DNA of 64,000 nucleotides. Source: a virus. The stretch spans positions 85,156 through 149,155 of IMG/VR virus record IMGVR_UViG_3300017605_001304; one strand, given 5' to 3'. The notes beneath the pieces were generated by a model. That model was not told the DNA's origin. It worked only from the letters and a program-made list of their open reading frames with translations, and did not search any database. Positions 1-28,028 of the stretch are shown in pieces; within the stretch, counting starts at the first letter, position 1; every line of letters starts with the position of its first letter. The position numbers were made by a program, and so were the translations under genes.

Positions 1-1074
1 CATGTTGGGCTTGAAGATCGGCTCTCCGACGGTCTTGTCGTCGACCCAGCCGTCGGGGGTCCAACCGTCTTTGAAGAGCCGCGTCGCCATGGAGCGCGTG
101 GATTCCTTCTTGTGCTTCTTCACGTCGTCTCCTCGCACGCGCGGTGTGTCGAAGGGGAAGCCCGGCGCGTCGACGTCCCTTGGGGTGAGCTGCGTGACCT
201 TGGCGATCTTCTCCGTGTTGAAGACGACCACCCAGTCCTCGTTGCTCTGCCTCACGTACGCCACGTCGACGCCGTGGTCGACCAGGAACTTCGCGAGCGC
301 CGGACCGGCCTGTCCAGACGCCTGATCCGAGTTCACGAAGACGTTGACGAGGTACTCGGCAGGGAACGGGTTCCCGGAGCGGGCCGCCAGCCGGCGCAGC
401 GAGTCTGCGAGCTCCTGGCGCTGCCGAAGACGTGGGACGTCGCGCAGCCACGCGAGCGTCTCTTCGAGATCGAGGCGAGCGTCCTGCAGCCAGCGCAGGT
501 CCGGAGCCAGGACGACCCGCTGCACGGCACCGCCGCCCTTCGCGTAGCCCTTGGCGGTCGTCCAGCTCGTGGTGAGGTAGATGCCGGGTCCGTGCTCCGC
601 GGCGCCGCGTCGTGCACCACGGATCTCGGGCGGGCCGAACCACCGATGCGAGCCGTGATACAGAACGAGCGGGTCCGTCATGGACGACTCTCGCTGACGC
701 TGGATAGGTATTACCTCGTAATAGCGAGGAGAAGAAATGTCACTCTGCTCGCGGACATACGAGATAGCGATCTCGTCGACACGTGGGAACGTAAGGAGCA
801 CATAGTCTAGTACGCGCGTACGAAGTCGCGGGGCAGACATGAAGCGATTCGAACAAGCCTGCCGAATCCAGCCGCGCTTGAACATGCTCAGCCAAAGCTG
901 GTCTTCCGCCGCCTCAGTGTTGTTCGTGAACTCCACCTGAGATGGAATCTGCACGCCGGTGGCGCGCAGTACGCCTTCGTGTGCATGGACCCAGTCATTG
1001 TGCGAAGTGTCCGGGTCGGTAATTGGGAACACGCAGCCATCCGGGGCGATCCAGGCGCGTCCAGCGTAGGCCAC
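1..1074 (-). CDS. GWIxPDG-domain + H-Y-E class ADP-ribosyltransferase fusion, partial (runs off window edge)
   Basis: Not in the ORF track; translated by hand from GTG 1074 (AGGAG upstream). MAYAGRAWIAPDG...H..W...GWIRQ...QRES|SMTDPLVLYHGS...GPGIYLTT...AKGYA...NEDWVVVFN...KKESTRSMATRLFKDGW. YHGS/GxGIYLT/YA/E pattern is PARP/diphtheria-toxin-like. Confidence 0.75.
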   Translation of the reverse strand, partial: MAYAGRAWIAPDGCVFPITDPDTSHNDWVHAHEGVLRATGVQIPSQVEFTNNTEAAEDQLWLSMFKRGWIRQACSNRFMSAPRLRTRVLDYVLLTFPRVDEIAISYVREQSDISSPRYYEVIPIQRQRESSMTDPLVLYHGSHRWFGPPEIRGARRGAAEHGPGIYLTTSWTTAKGYAKGGGAVQRVVLAPDLRWLQDARLDLEETLAWLRDVPRLRQRQELADSLRRLAARSGNPFPAEYLVNVFVNSDQASGQAGPALAKFLVDHGVDVAYVRQSNEDWVVVFNTEKIAKVTQLTPRDVDAPGFPFDTPRVRGDDVKKHKKESTRSMATRLFKDGWTPDGWVDDKTVGEPIFKPNM

Positions 1075-1084
1075 AGGCAGCTCC

Positions 1085-1621
1085 TTAACCGAGCGTGCAG
1101 TCGATCGGCTGGAAGTCGGCGTAGATCTCGCGCGCCTTGTCCAGCGACCACCCATAATTACTCAGGTAGTTCACGAACGCGCCGAGGTCCAGGAACTTGA
1201 AGCCCGTCACGGAGTGGCAGAGGTTCTGGTAGAGGACGTTCAGTCGCACGACCTGCAGGTAGGCGCGCGCCACGACGCGGCCGAACTCGTTGGGCCGCAG
1301 CGGGCTCACGATGATGCGCGGGCCGTAGACCTTGGTCCAGTCGATCTCTTCGGGCGGCAGGAGCGCCTGCGGGCCCCAGAGGGCGAGGGCCAAGCACTGG
1401 CTCGCGCGGTTGAACTTCTCGACGGCGTCCTTGTCGGGCTTGCCCTGCGCCTTCGGGCGGGTGTCCGGGAGGTCGACGCCGACGAGCTGGATGCGGGCCG
1501 CGCGGTACGTCCACAGGCCCTGGTCGATCATCCCGAAGAACGTCTTGCCGTCGACGACGAACTGCCGGCTCTTCGGGAAGAGCTGGACCTGACAGGCATA
1601 GTTGAACAGGATCCGATTCAA
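1085..1621 (-). CDS. Staphylococcal nuclease (SNase)-fold protein with degenerate active site
   Basis: VVDGKT...IDQG...RIQLVGVDLPD...NEFGRVVA aligns to the SNase pattern DGDT...RLxGIDTPE...DKYGRxLA. Confidence 0.65.
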   Translation of the reverse strand: MNRILFNYACQVQLFPKSRQFVVDGKTFFGMIDQGLWTYRAARIQLVGVDLPDTRPKAQGKPDKDAVEKFNRASQCLALALWGPQALLPPEEIDWTKVYGPRIIVSPLRPNEFGRVVARAYLQVVRLNVLYQNLCHSVTGFKFLDLGAFVNYLSNYGWSLDKAREIYADFQPIDCTLG

Positions 1622-1646
1622 GAAGACCTCCCGTGACGTCGACGCC

Positions 1647-2156
1647 TCACTGACGAAGCGCTGCGGTCACGTGCTTGTTGACGATTTCGGTCGCGTACTT
1701 CTCGTACTGCCGAGCGCGGCGCGCGATGAGCGTCGCTGCGACTCGCCAGTGAGGATGCGGGGGAAGCCGGACGCTCTGCCCGCCGATGACCGCCGCCCCG
1801 CCGTACTCCAGGAGCTTGCTCACGTAGGGCAGGGACCAACCGAGCGCGCTCATGCGGTCCTCGGTGGCGATCGTGACGGTGGTGATCTCCTTCCCGCGGT
1901 GGACATCGGGCAGGATGCCGCGCACGTAGTCGAAGATCGCCTCGCGCCACGCCTTGTCCGAGAGGTAGTCGGTCTCTTCCAGGCTGCGGTCCGCGGCGCG
2001 GGCGGCCTTGGACTGGATGGTCACGAGGCTGTCGCGTGTGACCTTGTCCGCGAGCTGCTGGAGCGACTCCTCACAGCCTTTCCGGAGACCTGCCTCGACC
2101 CTGCGCAGCCACTCCTCGGGCCGTAGCCCTTCCATATTGACGGTGGCCTTGATCAA
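1647..2156 (-). CDS. Putative neck/tail-completion protein (HK97 gp10-like motif)
   Basis: LLEYGG...LPPHPHWR resembles the LEyGT...PPRPfxRP motif; likely TTG start 2156 with GGAG upstream; lies in the neck module. Confidence 0.5.
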   Translation of the reverse strand: MIKATVNMEGLRPEEWLRRVEAGLRKGCEESLQQLADKVTRDSLVTIQSKAARAADRSLEETDYLSDKAWREAIFDYVRGILPDVHRGKEITTVTIATEDRMSALGWSLPYVSKLLEYGGAAVIGGQSVRLPPHPHWRVAATLIARRARQYEKYATEIVNKHVTAALRQ

Positions 2157-2188
2157 GGTATCGTCTCCACACCTTGGAGGAGGTGAAC

Positions 2189-2611
2189 ATGGCCACGCTG
2201 GACGAGCTGCAGAAGGGGTCCGAAGAGTGCTCGGCACGGATGCGAGCGGTGCTACAGGACGAGCTCAAGCGCACGGGCTTTCCACTGCGCCTATGCACCT
2301 ACTACGTGGTCGGCATGACCGGCGCGTGGATCTTCCGGCTGCTCTTCAAGTTCGACCTGTTTGAGAACTTCAAGAGCTTGGCGCTCATCCTGCTGTGTCC
2401 GCCTCTGCTGACCGCGACGCAGGCTTTCCTGTTGAGCTTCATGCTCAAGCGGGCATACCAGCGGGCGCAGGATGCGCTCGGCATCGCGGACAAGGCGGAG
2501 AAGGCGCTGTTCGAGGCGACGCGAGGACTGCTCGCTCAGCGTGAGCAGCTCAAGTTCCTGGTCGAGAGGCTGCGCGATCGCGACGAAGGCGAGGAGTGGA
2601 AGGACGCTTAA
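2189..2611 (+). CDS. Membrane protein (2 predicted TM helices + coiled coil), counter-oriented
   Basis: Strong SD GGAGGAGGTG before ATG 2189; hydrophobic segments YYVVGMTGAWIFRLLF and LALILLCPPLLTATQAFLLSFML; fills the gap between two minus-strand genes. Confidence 0.65.
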   Translation: MATLDELQKGSEECSARMRAVLQDELKRTGFPLRLCTYYVVGMTGAWIFRLLFKFDLFENFKSLALILLCPPLLTATQAFLLSFMLKRAYQRAQDALGIADKAEKALFEATRGLLAQREQLKFLVERLRDRDEGEEWKDA

Positions 2612-3102
2612 CGGCCGTGGCGGTACCGGTCGCAGGCGCACACGATGTGGAACGGGAAGTTGGACGATCCCCAGTATCCGTCCTTGCTGCGCGTCTGCGT
2701 CTTGATCTCATAGAGGTCCGAATCGAAGCGCACGATCGAGCCGACCAGGAACGTCGTGCTCGGCTGCAGGATCTTCTGGTCGAGCAGCAGCACGGTCGAG
2801 AACGTCACGAGCAGCGTCCGCTCCTCATCCATGCCGTACTTCTGCAGGCGGTACTTGCTCGGGCTGTGGTCGATGTGGGCGTGGACCATGATCGGGTGGT
2901 CCCAATCCGGGTCGGACGCCTCGTTGTAGAGCGAGTCGACGTTCGTGTTGCCCCGGTTGAGCAGGATCAACGCGATCTGCGGGTGGTGGCGGATGAACGC
3001 CTCGCGCTGGAAGTTCGCCTGGATCTTGTAGTCCGACGTCTCCAGCAGCTTGAGCAGGAGCTCATTCGCGTCCTTGCCGTCGATCGGCAGCAGGTCGGAC
3101 AT
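2608..3102 (-). CDS. Neck/head-closure protein, T4 gp14-like
   Basis: LQKYGMDEERTLLVTFS...GSIVRFDSDLYEI matches the gp14-type pattern; GGAGG SD; downstream of a gp13-like gene. Confidence 0.65.
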   Translation of the reverse strand: MSDLLPIDGKDANELLLKLLETSDYKIQANFQREAFIRHHPQIALILLNRGNTNVDSLYNEASDPDWDHPIMVHAHIDHSPSKYRLQKYGMDEERTLLVTFSTVLLLDQKILQPSTTFLVGSIVRFDSDLYEIKTQTRSKDGYWGSSNFPFHIVCACDRYRHGR

Positions 3103-3811
3103 GGAGGTCCTCCAAGAACAGACGAGCGGCGAGGAAGCGGGTGGCCTCGTTCACGTGCAATTCGTACGGCCGCTCGGGACGCCCCTCATCGCTGTACGGG
3201 TCGACGTAGAACGACGACTTGCCGGGGTAGTTCGTGATGAAGTAGTCCTTCGCGCGGGACAGATCCTTGCGGCGAAGCTCGTACATGTTCCAGTCCGCCT
3301 TGCGGATCCAGCCGTGCATGCACATGTGGCGCATGATGACGTCGCCCGGGGTCAGTGGCGGCGTCTGATAGGCAGCTAAGAGTTCAGGGTGAACTCGGGC
3401 CCACGAGTCGTGAGACTGCCGGTCAGAGTCGAGCGGGTAGAACGTGTCGTCGGGAGCAATCCAACCTGCCCGAACATTGCGCGACTCGTGCAGGCGCACG
3501 GTCACCGGTTCCACTCGATGTGGAACGCGGCCGTGAAGGTCGAGATTTGCTGCCTCGACTCCTGGATACTTCATGCGGATGTAATCGAGCAAGAGAGGCT
3601 CATACTTCACGTTCAACTCGTAGTCCTTCTTGCCAGCCTGCCGGATCCAGCCCTTCGCGTACAACTGCGTAATGACCGCATCCGTGAAGTCAGGATCGTA
3701 CGGGTCGTCCATGCCGAGCAGCTCGGCCGCGAACTGATCGTGCATGTCGAAACGCGGCTCCAGAGGATGGAAGTTCATGTCCGGGTCGAGCCAGCCAATG
3801 TGGTCGGACAT
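3062..3811 (-). CDS. Protein with two tandem GWIxPDG...GWIR domains and C-terminal tag
   Basis: MSDHIGWLDPD...GWIRQ...RLHES|RNVRAGWIAPDD...GWIRK...NEATRFLAARLFLED; start coupled to upstream stop. Confidence 0.75.
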   Translation of the reverse strand: MSDHIGWLDPDMNFHPLEPRFDMHDQFAAELLGMDDPYDPDFTDAVITQLYAKGWIRQAGKKDYELNVKYEPLLLDYIRMKYPGVEAANLDLHGRVPHRVEPVTVRLHESRNVRAGWIAPDDTFYPLDSDRQSHDSWARVHPELLAAYQTPPLTPGDVIMRHMCMHGWIRKADWNMYELRRKDLSRAKDYFITNYPGKSSFYVDPYSDEGRPERPYELHVNEATRFLAARLFLEDLHVRPAADRRQGRE

Positions 3812-4632
3812 CACTGGCCCTCCAGGAACAGACGCTTCGCGATAGCCTTGGTGGACTCTAGCTGCACGACCACTGACTTGATGCGGCCGCGCCAATCTCT
3901 GAGATCAATCTCGATCGCGCGTACTTGAGGATACTTACGCCGGACATAGTCCACGACGGACTGTTCAAACAAAGCGTAGCACTCGTACTGGTCGCGACTC
4001 ACTTGACGGATCCAGCCGTCGTCAAACATCGCTTGAATCTTCCTGTCGACCCAGTCATCGTCGTCCGAGTCGTGCGCCTCACTGTCGGCAACCCACCCGG
4101 CGTGTCCTTGCGGAGCGGCGTGAAACTGTCCGTTCGGGTCGATCCACCCTTGCACCAGCGATGGCGCGGCTTCAAGCCAGCTCGACGGGAGCTTGAGCTG
4201 CTGGACGGCGCCAGATCGAATCGACGACGTCAACACGATCCACTCCTGCTCTTCGAGCGAGTCCTCGCTGGAGAGGTAGCGGCTGATCGGCAGCCCGATC
4301 GCTGTGCCTTTACGAAGGCGATACAGCTTGCCGGACTTCCAGTGCTTTTGCGCGAACGTCACCGCCGTAGTGACGTTGCTGCTCCAGGACTGGAACACGC
4401 GAGTCGACTCAGACGCGGGATCTACCTCTGCACCACGGTAGAGCGCAGGAACTGGTTGGCCGTTCTCTTTCAGGTCCTGCAGCAGTGCCCGGGCCTCGGC
4501 CCGCAGCTTCCGGCCAGACGCACTCGAAGGTTCTGGGGCCCCGGCGAGCTCGTCCTTGGCGTGCAGCTCGACGGTACCCATGTCGCTGCTGACCCACCGC
4601 CAGACGGCCCGTACCGCTTGAGGGTCGATCAT
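3811..4632 (-). CDS. R-S-E class ADP-ribosyltransferase + GWIxPDG domain + C-terminal tag
   Basis: LYRG...FQSWSS...AVTFA...EEQEWIV is the R / S-x-S / E-x-E triad; linker WLEA; then QGWIDPNGQFH...GWIRQ...LESTKAIAKRLFLEGQ. Confidence 0.75.
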   Translation of the reverse strand: MIDPQAVRAVWRWVSSDMGTVELHAKDELAGAPEPSSASGRKLRAEARALLQDLKENGQPVPALYRGAEVDPASESTRVFQSWSSNVTTAVTFAQKHWKSGKLYRLRKGTAIGLPISRYLSSEDSLEEQEWIVLTSSIRSGAVQQLKLPSSWLEAAPSLVQGWIDPNGQFHAAPQGHAGWVADSEAHDSDDDDWVDRKIQAMFDDGWIRQVSRDQYECYALFEQSVVDYVRRKYPQVRAIEIDLRDWRGRIKSVVVQLESTKAIAKRLFLEGQ

Positions 4633-4991
4633 CCCAACCCCTCCAAGAACAGACGCTTGGCGATGGCCCGTGTAGACTCGTCCATGTTGATGACGAGTGT
4701 TTTCGGAGGGCCAAGAAAGTCAACTACATCGATATTAATTCGATGCACATTGGGGTGTACTCGACGTACGTAATCAATGACCCACTGCTCATACGCCGCG
4801 GTACACTCATAATCGTACAGTCCCGCTTGGCGCACCCACCCAGCCTTTAGCATCCGAACCGTCTCAGCGTTAACCCAAACCAGAATCTGATCGTTGTCCG
4901 GGGCTCCTGGCCTGTTGTCTATCACCCACTCGTCGTGGCCATTCAGTACGCGGTGGAACTCGCCGTCAGGATCAATCCAGCCCTGTGCCAC
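4629..4991 (-). CDS. Single GWIxPDG-domain protein with C-terminal tag
   Basis: MAQGWIDPDGEFH...GHDEW...GWVRQ...DESTRAIAKRLFLEGLG. Confidence 0.8.
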   Translation of the reverse strand: MAQGWIDPDGEFHRVLNGHDEWVIDNRPGAPDNDQILVWVNAETVRMLKAGWVRQAGLYDYECTAAYEQWVIDYVRRVHPNVHRINIDVVDFLGPPKTLVINMDESTRAIAKRLFLEGLG

Positions 4992-4994
4992 GGC

Positions 4995-6023
4995 TTACCC
5001 CCACACAGGCGGAACGGCCGGCGCGAGCGAGCGCAGGTCATCTTCCAGCCGCTGCCGGTCTTGCCGGCTCTCGTCTAGAAGCTGCGCTGCGTCGAGCGTC
5101 AGCGTTCCACCGGGGCTCGGGACCGTCCCGCTCCACTTGCCGCGGGTCCGGCCGAGGATCTCCTTCGCGACGGCAAGTGCGTATTGTCGGAACCACGCGT
5201 GGTGCGAGACCGGGATCTGGTCGATCGCGACGTCGGCGTAGTAGCGGTACGAGACGTCGTAGAGGCTCGGGTCCTGAGAACCCGAGGGCCCGCCGAGCGA
5301 GATGTAGAGCGTCCCGTTCTCAACTCGCCAAGTCCACTCGGGCTCGACCGACGCCTGCCTACGCACTGTTTCCCAGTGCGACTGCGAGAGCACGAACTCG
5401 TCGAACTGGATCTGCGGCCAGATCGGGAACTCGCGGCCGAAGAACGGGAACGACGTCAGGTTCAACTGCTGCTTGCGAACGAACTGCACGTCCGCAACGC
5501 CGCGTGAGCCGACGCCCGGCAGCGGGTAGGCGAAGATGCCGGCGCTCAGCACCACGGTGTCCGACAGCTCGCGGGCGCACCAGCGGTTGTACACCGTGAG
5601 CGCTTCGTTCATGCACGTCGCGAGCTGCCCGCTCGTGAGCTCGACGGCCACGGACGGGAAGCCCAGCATGTTGAAGACGTACTGCCGGATCGAGTCGGAG
5701 TTGACGCCGCTCGCGATCGGGTATTCAGCCGTCAGCACGGTCGGGAACGGATCAACCTGGATGCCGAGCTGGTTCGCGTACCACTTCGCCGTGATCCGGC
5801 CCTGCACATAATTGCTGGCGTCGATGTACGTGTAGTAGAACGTCCCCTGCGCGTCCGAGCCTTGCACGATCGAGACCGAGGAGTCGGTCCCGAGTGCCCG
5901 GGTCTCAGTCACCGTCACGGCGCCCGCCTGGAAGATCTGGACCGAGAGGTCCTGATCGACCACGTCGCCGAGCCCGGTGTCGTCATTGACGAAGCGGATG
6001 TCCAACAGAACTGGAAGCGCCAT
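4995..6023 (-). CDS. Head-tail adaptor/neck protein, T4 gp13-like, with extra N-terminal beta domain
   Basis: IRQYVFNMLGFPSVAVELT...WFRQYALAVAKEILGRTRGKW...PGGTLTLDAAQLLDES...LEDDLR...PPVWG. Confidence 0.85.
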   Translation of the reverse strand: MALPVLLDIRFVNDDTGLGDVVDQDLSVQIFQAGAVTVTETRALGTDSSVSIVQGSDAQGTFYYTYIDASNYVQGRITAKWYANQLGIQVDPFPTVLTAEYPIASGVNSDSIRQYVFNMLGFPSVAVELTSGQLATCMNEALTVYNRWCARELSDTVVLSAGIFAYPLPGVGSRGVADVQFVRKQQLNLTSFPFFGREFPIWPQIQFDEFVLSQSHWETVRRQASVEPEWTWRVENGTLYISLGGPSGSQDPSLYDVSYRYYADVAIDQIPVSHHAWFRQYALAVAKEILGRTRGKWSGTVPSPGGTLTLDAAQLLDESRQDRQRLEDDLRSLAPAVPPVWG

Positions 6024-6026
6024 CGC

Positions 6027-7538: not shown

Positions 7539-7584
7539 GGTTGTCCCCTAGGGGCTATGTCATGGGCATGAACGCCACAGAGGA

Positions 7585-9222: not shown

Positions 9223-12200
9223 TTACGTGTACTCGACGACGCGCGCGGCGCCGGTGGCCGACACCCAGATGCCGTCCACATTGCCGGTGTAATTGAAGGG
9301 ACACTCGTAGTACCCGTTCGCAGGAACCTGCAACGTGTAGCTCGTATTGCTTGCTGTCGTTCCATTCTTGAGATAGAGAATGGAGGTCGAATCGTTGTAA
9401 ACGCTGTAGCCAAGCCGGTTGGAGTTGGAGGTCAGCAGCGTCGTGCTCGACGCCAGTGCGTTCACAGTATTCGTGGTCGCCGTGGCCGAAGTCACGGCCT
9501 TCGTGGTGACGGTCGCAGCGATCGAGATCGGCTGGGTGACGGCCGAGCCGTCGACCTTCATGGCCTTGCTGGCCGTGATGGTCAGGCGCTGTCCGCGGGT
9601 CGTCTCGTCTTCGATGACGAGGACCTGGGCGCGCTTGGAGTCGATGCGCCCTGCCGCGACGTCGTTCTCAGTAAGCGCCGTCGCGCCCGACACGTTGTCG
9701 TCGTAGTAGTAACCCGCCGGGAAGACGGGCGTCGTCGCATCGGTGAAGGGCGCGTTGTCCGCGACGGCCAACTGCTCCGTCGTGTTCACCGAGCCCGAGA
9801 CCGTGACCGCACCGCTGGAGATCGTGGTGCTACCGGCGACGAGGTTGACCCGGATCGCGTTGTTGGTCGCGTCGCCGGGCTTCACCAGGGTGTTGCCGGT
9901 ATCCGTGATCGCCGCGGCCAGCGGCGACGAGGCCGGAGCATCGACGGTCAGCGATCCCGCGTTGTCCGAGACCGGGAAGGGTCCCGTACCCGCATTCGCA
10001 GTGACCGTGCCGGAGACCGGCTGGGTGACGGCCGAGCCGTCCACCTTGAGCGCATTCGTGAGCTGGACCTGATCGGTCGCGAGCGTCACGCGCAGCGTGC
10101 CCGCGCTCTTGCTGCCCGAGTTCGTGTCGACCGCGGTACCGGCCCACTGCGTCTGGTTCACCGACTGGTTGGCCGACAGCGCGCCAATCGTGTTCGTACC
10201 GGCCGGGAGCGCCGAGCTCAGCGCCACCGTGCTCGTGCCACGCGACGCACGGATGCTGACCGTCGACGAGTTCGTACCCGCCGTCGAGACCCGCACCCGG
10301 AAGGCGGTGAACCCGGTGATGTTGCCCTGGGTCTGGACGTCGCCCGCCGCCTGCGTGACCGTGTTCGCCACCGCGCCGGTCGAGACGGTGCCAGCCGTGC
10401 CGGAGATGGCCACCATGTTGACCGGCTGGAAGTTCGTGCCGTCGACCGAGCCTTCGAAGACGAGGGTGCCGGTGCCCGTGCCCCAGGTGATGCGCACGCC
10501 CACGCCGCCGTAGCCCACGAGCGACGACACCGTGATGGCGTTCGCCGTCGAGGTCATGCTGAGCGACTGCGTGACCTGCGTCGTGTCGTTGCCCGAGCGC
10601 TCACGGTCCCAGGTGGAACCGTTCCAACCCAAGGCCAGCGCACCGACCGAAGTTGTAGTCGGATTGGCCGTGGCATCGGCCAGCGCCGCAGCCGCCGGAA
10701 GCTCCGAGTCGACTGCAAGCGTGCCAGTACCGGCATTGGCCGTGACCGTGCCGGAGATCGTGAAGGTGCCCGAGCCCGCATTCGCGGTCACCGTGCCGGA
10801 GACCGGTTGCGTGACCGCAGAGCCATCGACCTTGAGGGCGTTGGTGAGCGCCGGCTGATCGGTCGCGATGACGATGCGCTGCGTACCGGCGCTCTTGGTG
10901 CCGGAGTTCGTGTCGATGTTCGTGCCGCCGAGCTGCAGCGTATTCGTCGCGAAGTTGCCGGCACCCGGATTCGCCGTGACCGTGCCCGAGATGGTCTGCG
11001 TGCCCGACGGGATGTTGCGCACGACAAGCCCGAGGTCGCTGCCTCCGGGAGTCGTGGTCGCCGTCGCGAGCTCCGTCCCGTCCGCCTTGCGCAGGTTCGT
11101 ATGGAACGCGCGCTTGGCCGTGATGCGGACTGCGGCTGCCTGATCTTCGGTCGGGTCGGCGGAGATCGTGTCGTTCAGCACGCCGCCGGACGGGGTGAAG
11201 GTCGTGGAGCCTTCCGTGAACGTGCTCTTGTCGGCTTGCGCCGTGCCGCCCGAGCCAGCACCGGCGACGATGTTCACACGAATGGCGTTGTTGCCGGCAT
11301 CGCCCGGCTTGACCAGCGTGTTGCTGGTATCGGTGATGGCGACGGCGACGGGGGTCGCAGCCGGAGCATCGACCGTGAGCGAGCCCGAGTTGTCGGAGAC
11401 AGGGAATGGGCCCGTACCGGCATTCGCCGTCACGGTTCCCGAAACCGCCTGGGTTCCAGACGGGATGTTGCGGACGATCAGCGCCTGCTCCGAGCCGCCC
11501 GGAGTCGACGTGGCCGAGGCCAGCTCGACTCCGGTGGCGCTCCGCAGGTTCGCATGCAGGCCGCGCTTCGCCGTCATGCGCAGCGCCGCGGCCTGATCCT
11601 CGGTCGGATCCGCCGAGATCGTGTCGTTCAGCACAGCCCCGACAGGAGTGAACGTCGTCGTGCCTTCCGTGAAGGTCGACTTGTCCGCCTGCGCGGTACC
11701 ACCTGAGCCGGCGCCCGCCACGATGTTGACGCGGATCGCGTTGTTGCCTGCGTCCCCGGGCTTGACGAGCGTGTTGCTCGTGTCCGTGATCGCGGTGGCG
11801 ACCGGCGTCGCCGCAGGCGCGTCCACGGTGAGAGAGCCGGAGTTATCGGAAACCGGGAAAGGTCCCGTACCCGCGTTCGCCGTGACCGTGCCCGAGACCG
11901 TCGTAGTTCCCGTCGCGCGGGTGACGAGGCCGTAGTCCGAGCCGCCGGGCGTCGTGTTCGTGACGACGACGACGTTGGTGCCGTCCGTGACCTTGGTCTT
12001 CTGCGTGCCGTCCGTCTGCGCCGAAGAGACGGCCGCAAGCGTCGACTGCGTGGCCAGCGAACCCGAGGTCCCGATGTTCGCCGTGATCGTGCCGTCGACC
12101 GTGAGCGAGCTGGAGTTGTCGTCGACGTGGAAGACCTGGGAGCCGCCCGACACGGGCTGGGTCACCGCCGAGCCGTCGACCTTGAGGGCGTTGGCGCCGG

Positions 12201-14522: not shown

Positions 14523-15959
14523 TTACGGGTTGAGGACCTGACCCGTCGAATACATCTTGTTGTTGATCGCCTTCACACCGTACTGCGTCATCGCGCCCTT
14601 GCGCCCGATGAAGTCATCGAGCACAACGGTCGGGGTCGTGAGGAGCGGGATGTACGGCGCGTACACGTAGCCCGCGTCCATGAACGAGTTGCCCTTGAAG
14701 CCCATCACCCACTTGTCGACCGGGAAGTTCGGGTCCTTGAAGCAATCGAAGCGACCGAGGAACTTGCCCATCTCGACGATGCCGGTGTTGCTGTGCGTCG
14801 CATACGCATTCGAGTCCGGCTTGAACTGCGGATGGGACTCGATGACGTTCGCCACCGAGGTACCCATGACCACGAAGTTCGCCTGCCCGCGCTTCGTCGC
14901 GCTGTAGATGAGCTGGCTGCCAGTGATGAACGCATCCGCGAGCGTCAGCTTGTGCTCGGCGTAGCTGATGTTCGCCGGGGTGGCCTTGTCCCAAAGGACG
15001 TTGCCCGCGCCCGCGAAGTTGTAGAGGTCGTTGATGATCTGGCGGTCGATCTCGTACTTGATCACCTCGGCCAGAACACCGACCAGCTCCGCTTCCGCAT
15101 CCAGGCCGTGGAGCGCCTGGAGGTTCTGCGAAGCCTCAAGCGACCAGTTCGCCTTGAGCTTGCGGACCTCGGCCGTGACGCTGGAGCTCGTGAGCTGCAG
15201 GTCGATGCCGGGGATTGCCGTGTTGGCCTCAGCGTCGTAGTCGTAGGTGATGAGGAGGCTCGTGGCGGTACCGCCGGTGCTCCAACCAACCGAGGCAATC
15301 GCGCCGGTCGTGTAGTTGACCGTGCCCGCGGTGATGCCCGTGCCGATCAGGTTGCCGTTGCCATCATCCGTGAAGCTCGTGGCCGTGGTCGCACCGACGA
15401 TCGTGCCGGACAGCGTGCCCGGCTTGATCGGAAGCTGACCAGAGCCCCACGTCGCGGACTGAGGCGTGGTACCGGCGAAGGTCACCGTCAACTGGGGAAC
15501 GGTCGCCGAGCTGTAATACTCGGAGTTCACCGGCCCGGTCCGCGAGTCGAAGAAGGTCGAGCCCGCGGTCTGGTTGCCCTTGGTCAGGCTCAGGATGAAG
15601 TCGAGATAGAAGACCAGCGAGATCGGCCCGGACATCGGCTGGATCGACACGATCTTGTTCGCGATGAGCTCGGGATAGATCGCCCGAACCAGCGGGAACG
15701 CGAACTTGTCGAACGAACCAATGTTGAGCAGCTTGGTCGTCTCAGTCAGCGGTCGCTCGCCCGTCAGCGTGACGTTCGGCCGCGTCTTGAGCATGTGCTG
15801 TCGCTGGTTCTCCAGAAGGAGCGCCGTCCACGGGCGGGAAAGCCCGTCGAGGCCCTTCATGTAGCGCGACCACTGAGCAGACTCGGCCAGACGCTCACCC
15901 GTGGTGATCATCTCGCCGTGCTGCTCTTCATTGAACTCCTTCAGATCGGGAGTAAGCAT
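14523..15959 (-). CDS. Major capsid protein, T4 gp23 family
   Basis: TALLLENQ; PLVRAIYPELIANKIVSIQPMSGP; RKLKANWSLEASQNLQALHGLDAEAEL; EIDRQII; GFKG..MDAGYVYAPYIPL; TQYG. Start may be TTG 15977 or ATG 15959. Confidence 0.95.
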   Translation of the reverse strand: MLTPDLKEFNEEQHGEMITTGERLAESAQWSRYMKGLDGLSRPWTALLLENQRQHMLKTRPNVTLTGERPLTETTKLLNIGSFDKFAFPLVRAIYPELIANKIVSIQPMSGPISLVFYLDFILSLTKGNQTAGSTFFDSRTGPVNSEYYSSATVPQLTVTFAGTTPQSATWGSGQLPIKPGTLSGTIVGATTATSFTDDGNGNLIGTGITAGTVNYTTGAIASVGWSTGGTATSLLITYDYDAEANTAIPGIDLQLTSSSVTAEVRKLKANWSLEASQNLQALHGLDAEAELVGVLAEVIKYEIDRQIINDLYNFAGAGNVLWDKATPANISYAEHKLTLADAFITGSQLIYSATKRGQANFVVMGTSVANVIESHPQFKPDSNAYATHSNTGIVEMGKFLGRFDCFKDPNFPVDKWVMGFKGNSFMDAGYVYAPYIPLLTTPTVVLDDFIGRKGAMTQYGVKAINNKMYSTGQVLNP

Positions 15960-15977: not shown

Positions 15978-17612
15978 TCATGCACGCCGCAAAAGGCCCT
16001 TGATCATGTCGCGCTTCGTCTCCGGCTTCGGAGACGCGTCTTCGGTCAGCGGCTTCCGGTCCTGGGGACCATTGGGCAGCGCCGACTCGAATGCGGGCTG
16101 ATGCGGAATGCTCGGGTCATTGTTGTCACGCGGCTGCGGGGCCAGCTTGTGCTGACCACACTGTGGGCAGGAGATTTCCTGCGCCGTGGTTTCGGCCTCG
16201 GTCACATAGTGGCAGCCTGCACAGGCGACCTTGTGAGTCGAAACCTTCGGCTTGGCGTCGGTGGCAGCGCTCTCCCGCTTGGATCGGGCAGGGTTGAACG
16301 CCTTGACCTGGATCTCGATCATTTCATCGAGTTCAGCGATCGTCTTCTGCTTACGGAGCAGTGGCTCCACCCGTCGCAGGGAGGGGTTGTCCGCAAGAGC
16401 TTCACGAATGCGGCGCAGCAGCTTCGCTTCGTCGTTGCGCTTCACGAAGGCTTCGAGCAGAGACAGCGCCGAAGCGCGCTCCGTCCCGACCTTGTGCAGC
16501 TCCTTCAACTTCTCCGCGAGCTTCTGCTCGACCTTCCGCGTCCCGTCGATGAGCGCAGCCGCGAGCTTCTTGGCCGCCTCGAACTTGCCCTTCGGGACCG
16601 AATCGGTCGACTCCACCAGTCGCCGCTCAAGCTCGGCGATCCGGCGGTCGGCAATAGACAGCCGTGCAAACGTCTCGGCCAGGAGCTCCGAACCGGCCGA
16701 AGCCGTAGTCGCGCCCGAGAACGAGCCGTTGACGGTGACAGTGTTGGCAGAACTGGTCGTGACCGGCGGAGCAATGGCCGCCTGAACGCGCGCCGCGAAC
16801 GGCGCCGCCGTCTCGTTGTACGAGCGATCCCGTGCCGCAGACGCGGCCGTACGGGACGCCTGGATGACGGCCAGGGCTTCGTCACCGTCCTTCTTCAGGG
16901 ACGGCTGCTGCCCGAGCAGGGTCTGGATCTTCGACTCAGACTCAATGAGTTCGAGAACGAACTTGTCGAGCTGCTTCGTGTCCGTGGTGGCCAGGGCTTC
17001 CTTGATCTCGTAGGCCCGGACCTGAAGGCGCCGGATCTCCGCCTGCTTTGCGTCCATGCTGGACTCCATCTTGTAAGGACCGCTCAGACTCTCCGCGAGC
17101 CGCGGGTACGCGCCTTCCACGCTCGGGGTGGAGACGAAGTCAAAGGTGTCGAGCTTGAAGCTCGCTTCCTCGACGTACTCGACTCCGTCGCGCATGACCG
17201 ACGTGCCGCGCCCTCGCGAAGAGATCCCCACGGGAACTCCGGCGCGGAACAACTTCTGAAGGTGGATGCCAGGGACCGTGTCGAGGACGAGTGCTTCGCC
17301 CTGGACTTCGTCTCCCTCCAGCCACAGCTTCTTGACAATGTGTGAAACTTCGAGCAGGTGGGTCTGACCGCTGTCGGGATGCTCCACGACGCCGGTCATG
17401 CCGTTGTTACCCATCCGCTTCTGCTGCTCGGGGTTGTTGAGCTGGTTCTCCCACAAACCCCGGGTGTAGACCCGGCCGTTGCCGTTCTTCACCCCGCCCA
17501 TCTGGAAGCGGCCACGCACCGTCATCCAGTTGTTGTTATCGACCTTCTCTTGAAGGACTGTGAACTTGGCGGGAGCAAGATGTTCAATGAGAGGCTTGAG
17601 GTCGCCGCTCAT
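15978..17612 (-). CDS. Prohead protease (T4 gp21 family) fused to coiled-coil scaffold with Zn ribbon
   Basis: KNGNGRVY, GVVEHP (His), VGISSRGRG (Ser), DFVSTPSVEGAY; long helical C-terminal half; CAGC...CPQC; TAATG coupling at 17612. Confidence 0.9.
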   Translation of the reverse strand: MSGDLKPLIEHLAPAKFTVLQEKVDNNNWMTVRGRFQMGGVKNGNGRVYTRGLWENQLNNPEQQKRMGNNGMTGVVEHPDSGQTHLLEVSHIVKKLWLEGDEVQGEALVLDTVPGIHLQKLFRAGVPVGISSRGRGTSVMRDGVEYVEEASFKLDTFDFVSTPSVEGAYPRLAESLSGPYKMESSMDAKQAEIRRLQVRAYEIKEALATTDTKQLDKFVLELIESESKIQTLLGQQPSLKKDGDEALAVIQASRTAASAARDRSYNETAAPFAARVQAAIAPPVTTSSANTVTVNGSFSGATTASAGSELLAETFARLSIADRRIAELERRLVESTDSVPKGKFEAAKKLAAALIDGTRKVEQKLAEKLKELHKVGTERASALSLLEAFVKRNDEAKLLRRIREALADNPSLRRVEPLLRKQKTIAELDEMIEIQVKAFNPARSKRESAATDAKPKVSTHKVACAGCHYVTEAETTAQEISCPQCGQHKLAPQPRDNNDPSIPHQPAFESALPNGPQDRKPLTEDASPKPETKRDMIKGLLRRA

Positions 17613-20041: not shown

Positions 20042-20044
20042 TGC

Positions 20045-21872: not shown

Positions 21873-21935
21873 GTCTGGGGCTCCTCAACGTCCCTCCCCC
21901 ACGTCTGAGGTGGAGGAGGGACACCGGAAAACAAC

Positions 21936-22732: not shown

Positions 22733-22734
22733 GG

Positions 22735-23151: not shown

Positions 23152-23179
23152 TTACAGCTCCTGAGATAGACGTCCACGA

Positions 23180-23614
23180 CTAGTTCCCCGCGACCCAGAC
23201 TGAACAGGCGGTGACGCTGCCCGTGAATGAGACCACGTCAATCCGGACTCGGTGCATTCCGTAAGAAGGAATGGCCGCCAGCCCGGTCGCGCCCGCCAAC
23301 AGTGCGGGGAAGGTGTCGTGGTCTCCACCCGCCTGCGAGGCCCCGGTCGTGTCGGTGGTCGAGGTGAAGGTCAGGCCCTGCTGGACCTGATAGTTGCCGC
23401 CATCGCTGCTGTACCACCGCAAGCGCAGGATGACCGTCCCTGACGCGTTGTTACATTCCACCTTGAGCAGGATGCCCGTGCTGAGCGCGTCGAGGACATA
23501 CGTGTTCATCCCCGGGGCCGCGCCCGACGTTGTGAATTCTTTCTGGAATGTGCCACGCAGAAGTGGCGGAGATGCAGTGATGAATACGTCTGCGCCCAGG
23601 TTTAGCGTGGGCAT
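23180..23614 (-). CDS. RNxFQKEF-family decoration-like protein (copy 2)
   Basis: RGTFQKEF...NTYVLDALSTGILLKVE...ILRLRWYSSDG...VWVAG. Confidence 0.7.
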   Translation of the reverse strand: MPTLNLGADVFITASPPLLRGTFQKEFTTSGAAPGMNTYVLDALSTGILLKVECNNASGTVILRLRWYSSDGGNYQVQQGLTFTSTTDTTGASQAGGDHDTFPALLAGATGLAAIPSYGMHRVRIDVVSFTGSVTACSVWVAGN

Positions 23615-23911
23615 TTAGGCGCTCTCCTCGTGCCCCCGTGTCTTCTCGGGGTACTTCTGCAGGTACATATCCAGCAGTCGACGAAAGAGGTCGTTCTGCT
23701 CCGCGGTGTAACGCTTCGTCAATGCGAAGCTCCGCGCATTCGTGAAGATGTGCCCGCCGACCTGCTTGTGCCAATCGAGGAAGTGAATCAGGTCCTCGCC
23801 GATCTTCAGGTCTCGCAGCGAGACGCTGCCCGGCTGATCCAGCCCGCGCCACTTGCCACCACGGGTGGGCGGCAGGACGTCCCGTTCGGGACGATCGTCA
23901 GGAAGCGCCAC
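23615..23911 (-). CDS. Hypothetical protein
   Basis: GGAGG SD, GTG start. Confidence 0.55.
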   Translation of the reverse strand: MALPDDRPERDVLPPTRGGKWRGLDQPGSVSLRDLKIGEDLIHFLDWHKQVGGHIFTNARSFALTKRYTAEQNDLFRRLLDMYLQKYPEKTRGHEESA

Positions 23912-24083
23912 GGCCGCCTCCGAGCTGCGGGTAGACCTGCAGCAAGGCGCGCGTCAACGCGCCCCAGTCCACGTCATTGGTCATGACGAGGTCCAAGTGA
24001 TAGGTCGCGAGCTCCGCAGGCTTCTCGCTCTCCTCGAAGAACTGCTTGACGAGCGCAGCCGCAATCTTTCGAGAAGAGGGCAT
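23898..24083 (-). CDS. Small hypothetical protein with tag-like N-terminus
   Basis: MPSSRKIAAALVKQFFEES; GAGG SD. Confidence 0.55.
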   Translation of the reverse strand: MPSSRKIAAALVKQFFEESEKPAELATYHLDLVMTNDVDWGALTRALLQVYPQLGGGRGAS

Positions 24084-24089
24084 GAGACC

Positions 24090-24608
24090 TCACTTGATCT
24101 CGGCGTGCACCGAGTAGCGGTTGAAGGCCGGGGATTCCCAGCTCATCGTAACCGAAAGGTTGGTCGGGATGGGGTTGCCTGTGCAGTCGGGGTTGTTCTT
24201 GCCGACCGCGAAGGTCGCGGACTTGGCGTCCGCTTCGAAGGCGTCAGCCTGCAGCGCCTCCATCGGGCAGAGGCCACGCGCCGCCAGGATCGCCACGGCC
24301 TTGCCGTACGCGTAGCGCGGGTTCTGGACGAAGGCTTGGCCGTCGAGCCCCGCGTTCAGGAAGGCGAGCTGCAGGCCCTGCTTGATCGCGTCGGGGAGCG
24401 ACTCCTGCGGAGGCGTCGGCTCGTTGGCACGCTTGTCCTTCTCCGGCGTCGAGAGCTTGTCGCCCTTGCCGTAGTAGTTCTGGTCGATCTTCTGGCTCAG
24501 GTTCGGCTTGTCCTTCGCCTTCTTGGCGTCGTTGGACACGGCGTCCGTCAGGACGAGACGTTCGACGAAGTTCAGGACGATGTTCGCCTTGGGCCCGATC
24601 TCACTCAT
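24090..24608 (-). CDS. Hypothetical protein
   Basis: GGAGG SD lies in the upstream gene end; GC3-biased. Confidence 0.65.
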   Translation of the reverse strand: MSEIGPKANIVLNFVERLVLTDAVSNDAKKAKDKPNLSQKIDQNYYGKGDKLSTPEKDKRANEPTPPQESLPDAIKQGLQLAFLNAGLDGQAFVQNPRYAYGKAVAILAARGLCPMEALQADAFEADAKSATFAVGKNNPDCTGNPIPTNLSVTMSWESPAFNRYSVHAEIK

Positions 24609-26262
24609 GTCGACCTCCCTGCAGACCCCGGAAGAGTCGGGCTGCGATGTTGCGGACGGACTCCTTGACCGGTTCCTTGTCCTTGTACAGCAGCGGCTGC
24701 TTGCCGGACTTCACGGGCGCGTCCTTGGCCGCTTGCCGATCCACGGTATCGATCTCGACGTCCGGCCCGTACTCCTGGTGGATCCAGTCCTCGATCTCTC
24801 GATCGTTGTAGTCGTAGCCATCGGGCGTCTTGACCGTCTCGAAGTCTTCCCCGAAGACCTCGCGGCCCAGGAAGCGACCATCCTTGGTGTAGATGAAGCG
24901 GATCTCGGGCTGCGAGTCCTGCTTAAAGAACTCGATGTGGCCTCGTCTATCTTTATAGGATCCGCGGTCCTTCAGCAGGTGCCAGTAGATGTTCTCGGCA
25001 GCGAAGTCCTTGATCACCTTATCGTTGTCTTCCCACTCGTTAGGAATACTCTCCATCGTCGGGTGCTGACCGTCCAAGAAGAACCAGTACGTCGAGGTGT
25101 TGTCCGCGCCCCAAAGATGTTCATGCTCACAATCTTGACAATAGTTCTGCCCGCAGTATTCGCAGTTATAGATGTCCTCGGGATCAAAGCTGTCCCCGCA
25201 GCCAGAGCACTCCTCCGTCTCATGATCCACCCAGAATCTCCCGCCGTGCGCATCCTGAATCCGCCGCTGCTGCTCCGACGTGAAGTCGTCCCACTCCAGC
25301 CCGCTGTCGTCCGACAAGCCGTTGACGCGGTTGGTGCAGAAGAGGTCCGCCAACTTCGCCAACGAGTCTTCGTCGTTGGGTTCCTTGTTCGACGGGCCAC
25401 GGATCTGCACCGCGCTCTTGTCGTCGACGTCGACCGTGATCAGCGGCCTCCAGATCTTCGTCTTCGGGTCCAAGGCCCGGTACGAGTAGAGCGTGCCCTC
25501 CCCTGCTCCACAGTGGTGCATCAGCTCACCTTCGAGATCCGACTCGCGACAGTCTAGGTGCACCCAAGCCGAGCCGTCGTCGTACTCAAGCACGATCTCG
25601 CCGAGATCACCCGCCTTGTTCGCGGACCGGATGTCGCCGCGTAGCTGAGCAGCGTACTTCTCACGGAGCTCGGCGACCCGATGTATGAGGCTTGCGGGGT
25701 TGGCCGCCTTTACGTCGAAGTTGATGTTGTCGAGGAGCGTGTCGATGTCGATCTTCGTCTTTTCCGCGATCTCGCCCAGTCCGCGGAGCCCGTCCTGCAG
25801 GTTGTCCTTCACCTGATAGAAATCAAGTGGCATCCAGTCCGCGTTCCACCCAAGGGCCACACAGAGCTTTGCGTAGTAATACTGCGTCGCGCTCACGATC
25901 GCCCGCCCTGCGGGATCTTCGCGGTTTTCCTTTGTGGAAGGCAGCGCGTGCCCGAGAATCTCTCGATACCGGTTCCACGCACCGAGGAGCATCCAACGAA
26001 ACGCCCAGATCGAGCGGTCGTAGCGCTTGAATTGCAGGGCCAGCTCTTCGCCGAGTTTGTAGAGCTGATCAGGATCCGAGAAGATGTTCGCGTTATTCGC
26101 CTGTCGCTTACGGAACTCACTCTCAGGCGGCAGTGCATCGATCATCGCCTTGATCTTCTGCACATGCTTCACGTACGTTGCGAACATGGCGCGCATGTCC
26201 GCCTGCGGGTTACGACCCTCGGCCAGCAGGCGCACGAAGATGTCGTAGACCCGAGCCATCAA
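24601..26262 (-). CDS. PcfJ-like domain + Zn-finger protein with C-terminal tag (paralog A)
   Basis: LEGELMHHCG...YSYR...PLITV...QIRGPSN (PcfJ pattern); CSGC...CEYC...CQDC; KESVRNIAARLF. Confidence 0.7.
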   Translation of the reverse strand: MMARVYDIFVRLLAEGRNPQADMRAMFATYVKHVQKIKAMIDALPPESEFRKRQANNANIFSDPDQLYKLGEELALQFKRYDRSIWAFRWMLLGAWNRYREILGHALPSTKENREDPAGRAIVSATQYYYAKLCVALGWNADWMPLDFYQVKDNLQDGLRGLGEIAEKTKIDIDTLLDNINFDVKAANPASLIHRVAELREKYAAQLRGDIRSANKAGDLGEIVLEYDDGSAWVHLDCRESDLEGELMHHCGAGEGTLYSYRALDPKTKIWRPLITVDVDDKSAVQIRGPSNKEPNDEDSLAKLADLFCTNRVNGLSDDSGLEWDDFTSEQQRRIQDAHGGRFWVDHETEECSGCGDSFDPEDIYNCEYCGQNYCQDCEHEHLWGADNTSTYWFFLDGQHPTMESIPNEWEDNDKVIKDFAAENIYWHLLKDRGSYKDRRGHIEFFKQDSQPEIRFIYTKDGRFLGREVFGEDFETVKTPDGYDYNDREIEDWIHQEYGPDVEIDTVDRQAAKDAPVKSGKQPLLYKDKEPVKESVRNIAARLFRGLQGGRHE

Positions 26263-28028
26263 CGGTCTCCCTGGAAGAGCCTCTTCGCGAGCGCTCGACT
26301 GGACTCCTTTTGCTGGTACAGGAGCGGCTGCTTCCCGGCCTTCACCGGAGCGTCGCGCTTCGCCTGCCGCGACTCGTCCTCGATGTCGACGTCCGGGCCG
26401 TACTGCTGGTAGACCCAGTAGTCGATGTCTGCCTTCGGGACGTTCGCGACGTAGCGCCGGCCTGGAACTCCCTCCGGCTCGTGCGACCGATACCAGTCAT
26501 CTTGACCAGAGAACTGCTCGATGCCGAGCAGTCGTCCATCATGCTTCGAGTAGATGAAGATGGTCTGCGGCGGGTCCTTGCCGTAGTACATCTCGACGTC
26601 TCTACGGGCCACGCCCTTCCAGTCAAAGTCGTACTTATTGTCTGGATTAGCGGCCATGTATTGAAACGCGTCGGTATCCGGCGTCTCGCCCTCATTATCG
26701 TTGTCGCCCCACTTCGTGGGAAGCAGTCCGTCCCACACCAACTGGCCGTCGACGTAGGCCCAGACTTGGATCGTATCGCCCCAGAGCTCGTCCTCCTCAT
26801 GACCACCGATACAATCGTTACAGTAGAGTTCGTCGCAGTATTCGCACTTGTTCAGCTCGTCCTCGTCGAACCGATCTCCGCAGCCCTCGCACTTCTCGCG
26901 GTTGTCCTCTTCCGGCTCGTTGTCGCCGTCATCAGCATCTTGCTCGCGGTGGCCGGGGTAAACGTGGCGAGAGTCGGTAAAGGTAAAGCCGGGGTTCTCG
27001 CTCTGGATCTTGGCGACCTGCTCCGGGGTGAAGTTGCTCTTCTGGACGTCGCCCCCGTACGTCGTCCCGCGCATCCACTTGGCGGTCGCGAGCAGGTCGG
27101 TGAGCTTCTCCCAGGCTTTCGGGTCGTCGTCGAGCACGGCGTTGGCCGACCCACGGAACTGCGCGACGCGGTGGTCGTGCGTCAGCCCGACGTTGTAGAC
27201 GGGCTGCCAGCCCTTGCCGCTCGGAGCCTTCTCGCGGTAGGAGAGCTGGTCCCCGCCCGACGAGCCGCCGCAGTGGTGCATCAACTCGCCTTCGAGATCC
27301 GACTGCGTGCACTTCAAGTTCAGCCAGACTGCTCCGTCCGGGTACTTGACGACGACCTCGCCGACAGCACCTTGCTTGTTCGCGGTGGTGATGTCGCCCA
27401 TGAGCTCGGCGCGGAAGTCCGCTTCGATCTTCTTATAGACAGAAGGCAGATGACTACTTGGCATCGGAACCACGAAGCCGCCCTTTGCCAGGATCGTGTC
27501 CACCGGCTGCGTCGTCTTCTTGTTCACCTTTTCAGCAATCTCAAGAATCGCCGTCAGTATTGCAGTAACTCTGTCCGTAGGCAGTGGCCCGTTACCTAGA
27601 GTCGGATCCACCCTGCGAACGATCGCAGCCACGGCTTCCATCAGGGAATTGTAAAACCCCTCCCATTCCACAGAATGGCTATTCGCTGCCCGCTGGACAC
27701 ATAGGTTATGAATAAGACGATTCACTACGATTGCAAGCATCCATCTCCACGCCTGAATCGCGTACGTATACGAACCGAGACGCTTACAGAGCTGAAACGC
27801 AACCTCGTCCTCCGGCTGGTCTACGTAGCGCCGCAAGGCGCCTAGCTCGTTTTGTAGCGCCTGCGTAAGAGGTTGATAATTAGGATCGCTATCGGCCTTC
27901 GCGAGCACCTCCGGCGTGAAGATCCTCTCGATCCGCCGGATGGCGGCGTGGCCGATCTCCCGCATGTCGGTAAAGGGATTCCGCCCCTCCAGCAGAGCTT
28001 GCAGGAAGAAGTCCTTGGGAGAGGCCAT
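26259..28028 (-). CDS. PcfJ-like domain + Zn-finger protein with C-terminal tag (paralog B)
   Basis: LEGELMHHCG...LSYR...QFRGSAN; CEGC...CEYC...CNDC; KESSRALAKRLF. Confidence 0.7.
   Translation of the reverse strand: MASPKDFFLQALLEGRNPFTDMREIGHAAIRRIERIFTPEVLAKADSDPNYQPLTQALQNELGALRRYVDQPEDEVAFQLCKRLGSYTYAIQAWRWMLAIVVNRLIHNLCVQRAANSHSVEWEGFYNSLMEAVAAIVRRVDPTLGNGPLPTDRVTAILTAILEIAEKVNKKTTQPVDTILAKGGFVVPMPSSHLPSVYKKIEADFRAELMGDITTANKQGAVGEVVVKYPDGAVWLNLKCTQSDLEGELMHHCGGSSGGDQLSYREKAPSGKGWQPVYNVGLTHDHRVAQFRGSANAVLDDDPKAWEKLTDLLATAKWMRGTTYGGDVQKSNFTPEQVAKIQSENPGFTFTDSRHVYPGHREQDADDGDNEPEEDNREKCEGCGDRFDEDELNKCEYCDELYCNDCIGGHEEDELWGDTIQVWAYVDGQLVWDGLLPTKWGDNDNEGETPDTDAFQYMAANPDNKYDFDWKGVARRDVEMYYGKDPPQTIFIYSKHDGRLLGIEQFSGQDDWYRSHEPEGVPGRRYVANVPKADIDYWVYQQYGPDVDIEDESRQAKRDAPVKAGKQPLLYQQKESSRALAKRLFQGDR

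Follow-up and report, generated by a model that had tools for sequence, protein, structure and literature searches.

Six proteins encoded in a 64,000-nucleotide stretch of virus DNA carry the same 11-residue helical peptide, termed here the tag, with the pattern E-[SA]-x-[RK]-x-x-A-x-R-L-F. The stretch, referred to as the window, comprises the last 64 kb of the single 149,155-bp record IMGVR_UViG_3300017605_001304 (65% G+C); its head gene set is T4-like, and the record is that of an uncultured T4-like phage. We regard the tag, at somewhat less than even chances, as a portable docking helix that loads effector-like proteins into the prohead via the scaffold-tail site, by mimicking the scaffold tail. 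A broader proposal is held more doubtfully: that the tag acts independently of its position (C-terminal, N-terminal or interdomain), copies the tail of the protease-scaffold, and forms with a domain termed here the GWIxPDG module a plug-in system for packing and injection.

A six-frame regular-expression search of the window and of the entire genome gave exactly six matches to the pattern, all on the minus strand. A hidden Markov model (HMM) of 16 columns, trained on the six tags, scored them at 27.6-33.9 bits across the whole genome, against 6.4 bits for the next-best open reading frame (ORF). An earlier note on this DNA had listed the same six sites and proposed such a scan; the list was confirmed, with no background matches. 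Five of the six tags sit 4-20 residues from the C-terminus, also as first described, and that of carrier A is internal (the tagged proteins are designated carriers A to F; Table 1). Residues E1, A7, R9, L10 and F11 are invariant across the six, yet their codons differ (GCG, GCC or GCA for Ala; CGG, CGT, CGA or AGG for Arg), and selection therefore acts on the peptide and not on the DNA. The tag helix is amphipathic and basic, with hydrophobic residues in the pattern i, i+1, i+4, i+5, a hydrophobic moment of 0.27-0.56 and a negative mean hydrophobicity. The GGAGG Shine-Dalgarno sequence of the next gene lies within the codons right after R-L-F, 5-6 nucleotides upstream of its ATG, and the whole tagged-gene set is, as read from the sequence, translationally coupled. 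The residues after R-L-F (L-E-G, L-E-D or Q-G-D) double as the Shine-Dalgarno sequence, so that their conservation is ambiguous as a protein signal.

A second, wider HMM with foreign tags added recovered the same six matches and one weak candidate, G, at 5.3 bits. G is a 226-residue protein encoded outside the window (genome 82999-83676, minus strand; L014:7000-7677), two genes downstream of carrier A, and its N-terminus, M-R-P-S-A-R-T-I-A-S-G-L-F-L-E, is weakly tag-like; it may represent a seventh tag, in N-terminal position. Neither G nor H, both downstream of carrier A, gave a family match, and G is not similar to A. A 387-residue gene between G and carrier A (L014:7688-8848) likewise had no family match.

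Capsid docking is now the leading, although not an established, reading because of two observations: the tag resembles the tail of the prohead protease of this phage, and a complex prediction points to the capsid protein. The protease gene lies directly upstream of the capsid gene. Its product combines a prohead protease domain (PF03420, 53 bits versus a cut-off of 27; phrog_207, E 2e-38) with a coiled coil of ~370 residues bearing a CxxC...CxxC zinc ribbon, and corresponds by its domain content to a gp21-gp22 fusion in T4 terms. With a gp23-like capsid protein and an S77 protease of gp21 type both present, the T4-type head machinery assumed in the earlier note is confirmed. The same protease-coiled-coil arrangement and zinc ribbon occur in L015 (8007-9956).

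Aligned in register, the protease-scaffold tail and the tags have E, S/T, R, I/M, K, L and F/L in common. A relaxed pattern, widened after the protease tail had been seen, matched the six tags and this tail only among all six-frame ORFs (258,518 residues), while ORF sets with shuffled residues yielded a mean of 0.03 matches, never close to an ORF end. This likeness serves as a lead rather than proof. A short amphipathic helix likewise closes other T4-like proteases and scaffolds, namely T4 gp21, T4 gp22, L021 and L015. Inside the procapsid, the 80alpha and P22 scaffolds contact the capsid N-arm with their C-terminal end, and the SaPI1 protein CpmB competes with the 80alpha scaffold for the capsid site (PMC12749128).

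Complex prediction was performed with the capsid protein (3-row alignment) and the E/F tail (2-row alignment), both alignments thus being shallow. The complex score was 0.33 (0.33, 0.33 and 0.46 in the individual runs), compared with 0.01 for the best control, with the runs agreeing in at least 79% of contacts and a partner predicted local distance difference test (pLDDT) value of at least 51. In calibration, 58 of 80 solved complexes and 2 of 110 mismatched pairs reached the pass mark, and scores of 0.60 or less while passing were obtained for 7 of the 80 solved complexes plus both passing mismatches. The docking on the procapsid that the earlier note had envisaged thereby gains weak support, in the form of a predicted contact between the capsid protein and the E/F tail.

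The same note had described the tag as a cleavable label, cut after its leading Glu. The putative maturation site of the capsid protein is L-T-E, invariant in this phage, in L015 (about 10190) and in T4 gp23. T4 gp21 cuts after L/I-x-E and the T4 gp23 propeptide comprises 65 residues (PMC9026906); with the capsid L-T-E aligned to E65 of T4 gp23, the cleavage specificity is therefore probably conserved, which suggests that L-x-E recognition extends across very distant T4-like phages. Another L-T-E near the end of the protease-scaffold fits C-terminal self-processing as known for SPN3US gp245 (PMC10052503). The residues at position P3 before the first Glu of the tags are K, V, Q, M, V and Q, with no Leu or Ile, and a cut at this Glu is therefore not predicted; cleavage there is rather unlikely, and this part of the original claim is not supported. 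Behind the helix, B, C, D and three foreign tags have F-L-E, which A, E and F lack. Of the modular cargo-delivery label as first conceived, then, the portable peptide on effector-like proteins is retained, the cleavable part is unsupported at the proposed bond, and docking stands at the strength that the complex prediction lends it.

The carriers were first described as six dissimilar proteins, which proved overstated: A to D have a common module and E and F are paralogs (32% identical overall), although the six tags are still spread over three architectures, comprising module proteins, an ADP-ribosyltransferase (ART) with an internal tag, and PcfJ-like paralogs. The bodies are not six independent ones, and in relatives the tag is mostly a C-terminal extension of one module. 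Carrier A contains, in order, an untagged GWIxPDG module, an ART-PolyVal-like domain of H-Y-E-like type (22.1 bits, below the Pfam cut-off of 31.2), a basic linker, the tag and a domain of ~125 residues of unknown kind. The N-terminal domain of carrier C has the motifs L-Y-R-G, S-W-S and E-Q-E-W, and its Atlas model matches ADPrib_exo_Tox clusters with template-modelling (TM) scores of 0.6-0.72, clusters that include the Tevenvirinae ADPRT (Alt) family and portal-MuF-ART fusions; no sequence match to carrier C was found in Pfam, PHROG or PDB. The carriers thus likely include two ADP-ribosyltransferases, A and C, as judged from the sub-threshold profile match of A and the model of C. E and F offer a PcfJ-like lead (0.88) and a zinc ribbon, with the last ~50 residues (Lys/Pro-rich linker and tag; the E tail at window 24604-24750) 60% identical and by far the best-kept part. 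The effector-like character assigned to the carriers in the earlier note is supported: C has an Alt-like R-S-E ART fold by its structure match, the ART-PolyVal match of A is sub-threshold and E is a PcfJ-like lead.

The GWIxPDG module spans ~105 residues and consists of a GW-I-x-P-D-G hairpin, a GWIRQ hairpin and a D-Y-V..Y-P helix. The genome contains five copies, all in A-D, of which three end in the tag and two are untagged (the N-terminal one of A and the first of B). An exhaustive profile search of 1.84 billion representative proteins gave 177 relatives at E <= 0.001, many of them multi-domain proteins of 1000-5000 residues with up to ten module copies. The module has no entry in Pfam or PHROGs and, by these sequence comparisons, is a new, undescribed domain family tied to ART, GNAT and Arr-type enzymes in large phages. 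A model of carrier D from a 27-sequence alignment had a mean pLDDT of 93.6 and a predicted TM score (pTM) of 0.80; the tag forms a helix after the last strand, with pLDDT 78-81 versus 96-98 in the core. Foldseek comparison of the module with PDB gave no match at E <= 0.001, the best BFVD match (E 6e-3) was to uncharacterised phage proteins, and the best VIA-align wide score was Z 4.8. The module fold is left unassigned by these comparisons, which is not evidence for a new fold.

Portability of the tag is observed in related phages. It is C-terminal on the single-module proteins P0108, P0051 and P0038 and on the L010 gene, lies between module and GNAT acetyltransferase in P0011 and P0029, and stands at the extreme N-terminus of the module protein P0046; tags without module and modules without tag both occur. 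The tag is hence portable, being found C-terminally, N-terminally, between domains, or on module-free proteins behind a flexible linker. The 169-kb phage contig L011 keeps the two parts separate: at 9291-10917, the gene of a single-module protein is translationally coupled to that of a GNAT, facing an ART-PolyVal gene. In P0011 and P0029, the same combination is joined into one protein by way of the tag.

Distant module proteins, from phage-like contigs of 87-241 kb and near ART-PolyVal, GNAT and Arr-type genes, carry another helix, R-A-D-x-L-I-x-x-x-L-x-E, mostly at the N-terminus. In the 18-kb Logan SRR20000430 contig L013, a phage fragment, at least 14 modules are spread over six neighbouring genes; a helix version peculiar to it, R-A-D-x-L-I-R-x-A-L, occurs five times, placed N-terminally or where domains meet. 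L013 also holds a DUF5661 domain and an Arr-ms domain protein. Uniformity of the helix within a genome and divergence between genomes are expected of a peptide co-evolving with a phage-specific receptor.

The genes of D, C and B occupy a slot between the gp13-like protein and a 164-residue protein that is conserved in relatives. On related-phage contigs, gp13-like proteins 63-67% identical to that of this phage mark the same slot; it is taken by a module-plus-tag gene in L004 and L010 and by a module-tag-GNAT gene in L001, ahead of a homolog of the 2608-3102 gene. In this phage, the slot holds three genes. It is empty in the more distant L006-L008 (129-kb contig, gp13 46% identical) and L015 (capsid protein 48% identical), and the source record of L015 (63 kb, 34% complete) contained no module. 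Being filled in near relatives and empty in distant ones, the slot indicates that the carriers entered a conserved neck-tail operon as lineage-specific insertions. Each carrier gene is coupled to genes for neck, tail or fibre proteins, so that the setting is that of late virion operons. Third-position G+C in carrier genes A-F is 0.61-0.79 compared with 0.88-0.95 in structural neighbours, and going by these low values the carriers look like accessory genes.

Under scaffold-tail mimicry, the carriers would be made late, alongside the virion proteins, as the coupling of their genes suggests. The tag, presented on a linker or at the module edge, would bind where the scaffold tail does, on the inside of the procapsid or on the core, in line with the predicted capsid contact. 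The carriers would then be enclosed in the head, with the scaffold presumably degraded by the S77 protease, as its family implies, and might exit along with the DNA, as T4 Alt and the T4 internal proteins do, to ADP-ribosylate or acetylate host targets, for which the domain leads and the precedent of T4 Alt speak. As to origin, the ancestral unit may have been a GWIxPDG module plus tag, its small gene lying between those for the gp13-like and gp14-like proteins, onto which enzymatic 'warheads' (ART, GNAT) were fused, while the tag alone would have been copied onto unrelated proteins, namely E, F and the middle of A.

Several points weigh against this reading. The likeness to the protease tail is post hoc and at the level of a pattern, with A7 to I and R9 to G breaking invariant positions. 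By the calibration of the tool, predictions in the range of the 0.33 score are more often wrong than right unless the prior is good. The first Glu of the tags, as noted, does not fit L/I-x-E, and the cargo signals of T4-type and phiKZ-type phages are N-terminal. For B, C, D and the majority of relatives, the tag comes directly after the last strand of the module and could be part of the domain. Comparative support amounts to a handful of short contigs: scans with tag-codon DNA patterns gave 14 IMG/VR and 3 metagenome-contig matches, all out of frame or module-free and hence due to chance. Word-index homology searches with D and E returned the genome's own proteins only, and the gp13-like protein had no relatives in IMG/VR or JGI metagenome contigs.

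The place of the tag at the module edge underlies the strongest rival, which we consider unlikely: that the helix is part of the GWIxPDG module, and that lone tags (E, F and mid-A) plug into untagged modules in trans, giving a hetero-oligomeric effector complex. Nearly every family member has a short amphipathic helix immediately flanking the module on one side or the other, and in the D model it follows the last strand with a pLDDT of about 80, a value nevertheless clearly under that of the core. The genome does offer both partners, two untagged modules and three module-free tags, and module and GNAT are separate coupled genes in one distant phage and tag-fused elsewhere. Most linkers of the L013 multi-module proteins are without a helix, however, the protease-scaffold tail is tag-like despite having no module, and the rival gives no purpose for the complex.

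Action of the helix in the host cell, as a handle bringing all six proteins, once injected or synthesised, to one host structure (inner membrane, MinD-like, or hub protein), is rated a little lower still. The C-terminal, basic amphipathic character and hydrophobic pattern of the helix, its resemblance to the K-R-L-F end of the E. coli MinD tail, and the enzyme-like nature of the carriers would suit such a role, although N-terminal and internal tags in relatives are ill-suited to a tail of MinD type and the mean hydrophobicity is negative. The hydrophobic-moment comparison with MinD does not discriminate between the readings. A targeting sequence of MinD/FtsA type would have its apolar face conserved and its polar face under loose constraint. 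On the polar face E1, R4 and R9 are invariant in 13 tags (motif position 4 being R/K), which argues for a protein contact, and the invariant small Ala on the apolar face also suggests a specific protein contact over lipid. The likeness to the protease-scaffold tail, moreover, is left unexplained.

It is improbable that the tag serves mainly for recognition or cutting by the prohead protease, at polyprotein or propeptide linkers, with no targeting role. In A, P0011 and P0029 the tag does sit where domains join, the family at large has many helices that run out in L-x-E before a G, S or A, fitting the L/I-x-E of T4, and B, C and D have F-L-E right after theirs. From C and D, however, cutting behind L-E would take off just 2-3 residues, while A, E and F lack a Glu after the helix and the first Glu lacks Leu or Ile at P3; the L-E-G codons also serve as the ribosome-binding site of the next gene, and substrates must first reach the prohead to meet an internal protease.

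A DNA or RNA element at gene ends (a ribosome-binding or coupling region, or a recombination joint) has next to no probability and was rejected on the codon variation at invariant residues: five tags do end 10-25 nucleotides upstream of the next start codon with a Shine-Dalgarno sequence right after R-L-F, but the 33-nucleotide core varies freely at synonymous sites with its amino acids invariant, the tag of carrier A is internal with no start codon near, and relatives have the tag N-terminally and between domains.

Among known systems, the capsid-targeting sequence (CTS) of the T4 internal proteins IPI-III resembles the tag in being a short peptide common to otherwise unrelated proteins, injected in T4 and putatively so here, and a gp23-like capsid protein, an S77 gp21-type protease and an ART among the cargo are found here as in T4. 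T4 Alt is packaged in the head and gp21 processes both its ends (PMC9026906; PMC5512222). The CTS differs in occupying the first 10 residues after Met and ending in a cut I-x-E, whereas the peptide here is C-terminal or internal, unrelated in sequence and preceded by no L/I-x-E. Within the present set, an N-terminal position is seen only in the relative P0046 and in the weak candidate G. Since this post-Met position is lacking and the cleavage rule is not in evidence, the tag is not classed as a CTS; by analogy, it is functionally nearer to scaffold-tail mimicry and to encapsulin cargo-loading peptides.

With the scaffold C-terminal ends and SaPI1 CpmB, the likeness lies in a C-terminal helix that docks, or here would dock, on the procapsid interior at a site that a foreign protein can use. 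The difference is that one protein or a size-redirecting parasite is involved there, as opposed to a family of enzymatic cargo here, with a likeness at the level of a pattern. A C-terminal encapsidation signal of the HK97 protease was reportedly described by Duda and colleagues in 2013. Encapsulin cargo carries a C-terminal peptide of ~10 residues behind a flexible linker, on different enzymes, which binds inside a shell of HK97 fold; this parallels the tagged carriers, although organisms, shell and motif all differ and neither DNA packaging nor ejection is involved, making the comparison one of analogy and not of membership.

Polyvalent and MuF- or portal-fused phage effectors, which have ART, GNAT and PcfJ-type domains, are predicted to enter the cell along with the DNA (PMC5512222). 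Such domains likewise occur here among virion genes, and GWIxPDG is found in multi-domain proteins of 1000-5000 residues; covalent fusion to a structural domain in those effectors contrasts with small separate proteins sharing a peptide in this phage. The N-terminal packaging signal of P1 DarB suffices to send a reporter into the myovirus head (PMC9024508). It is, like the tag as proposed here, a terminal signal directing proteins to the head, but it is N-terminal, 30 residues long and confined to one protein, with no shared motif. New here are that the tag is used C-terminally or irrespective of position, that it is linked to an undescribed module, and that it resembles a scaffold tail.

The first minutes of infection, with the take-over of host enzymes and the escape from defence, are decided by proteins that phages inject together with their DNA. 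To our knowledge, head addressing of injected proteins has been established experimentally for T4 and P1 only, with N-terminal signals in both. If correct, loading through the tag would represent a second, independent cargo-loading route, provide a simple rule for predicting the injected protein sets of uncultured phages, and make available a handle of 11 residues by which foreign proteins could be loaded into phage heads. Any enzyme gaining the 11-residue tag would then be packed into the head and injected, a consequence for which we claim the same guarded likelihood as for the plug-in proposal as a whole.

Table 1. Window positions of the tags, the carriers and modules, and the head and neck genes discussed.
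Feature	Position	Strand	Basis or remark
Tag of carrier A	73..105	-	Internal, about 125 residues after it; regular expression and HMM
Tag of carrier B	3116..3148	-	20 residues before C-terminus; tail overlaps next gene
Tag of carrier C	3826..3858	-	Regular expression and HMM
Tag of carrier D	4647..4679	-	Helix 107-119 in D model
Tag of carrier E	24631..24663	-	Behind Lys/Pro-rich linker
Tag of carrier F	26274..26306	-	Behind Lys/Pro-rich linker
Tagged-gene ends with GGAGG of next gene	3811-3825, 4629-4646, 3102-3115, 24608-24625, 26259-26273	-	Stop and start codons overlap
Carrier A	1..1155, cut by window edge; whole gene genome 84847-86310, 488 residues	-	Described in the text
Carrier B	3062..3814	-	Two GWIxPDG modules, first untagged, and tag
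Carrier C	3811..4632	-	R-S-E ADP-ribosyltransferase-like domain, GWIxPDG module, tag
Carrier D	4629..4991	-	Single GWIxPDG module and tag, 120 residues; same form in related phages, same slot
Carrier E	24601..26259	-	PcfJ-like lead, Zn-ribbon, linker, tag
Carrier F	26259..28028	-	Paralog of E
GWIxPDG modules	675-1062, 3104-3802, 3814-4155, 4632-4991	-	Within carriers A, B, C, D; untagged copies at 675-1062 and 3467-3802
Prohead protease-scaffold, 567 residues	15978..17681	-	Peptidase_S77 at residues 28-193 and coiled-coil scaffold-like extension
Tag-like last 14 residues of protease-scaffold	15981..16022	-	Relaxed pattern match
L-T-E in protease-scaffold, 20 residues before end	16041-16049	-	Sequence
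Major capsid protein, T4 gp23-like	14523..15959	-	tblastn to T4-like major capsid proteins
Putative capsid maturation site L-T-E	15741-15749	-	Aligns exactly with L-T-E65 of T4 gp23
gp13-like neck protein	4995..6023	-	PF26809, precomputed; marks conserved slot where D, C and B are inserted

Between positions 1 and 30 kb of the window, almost every gene lies on the minus strand in close packing. No promoter or terminator signals above chance were found around the carrier operons. Adjoining carrier F, at 28038-30485 on the minus strand, an 815-residue protein with PKD, right-handed beta-helix and Big_7 domains is encoded, and is probably a tail spike or depolymerase.

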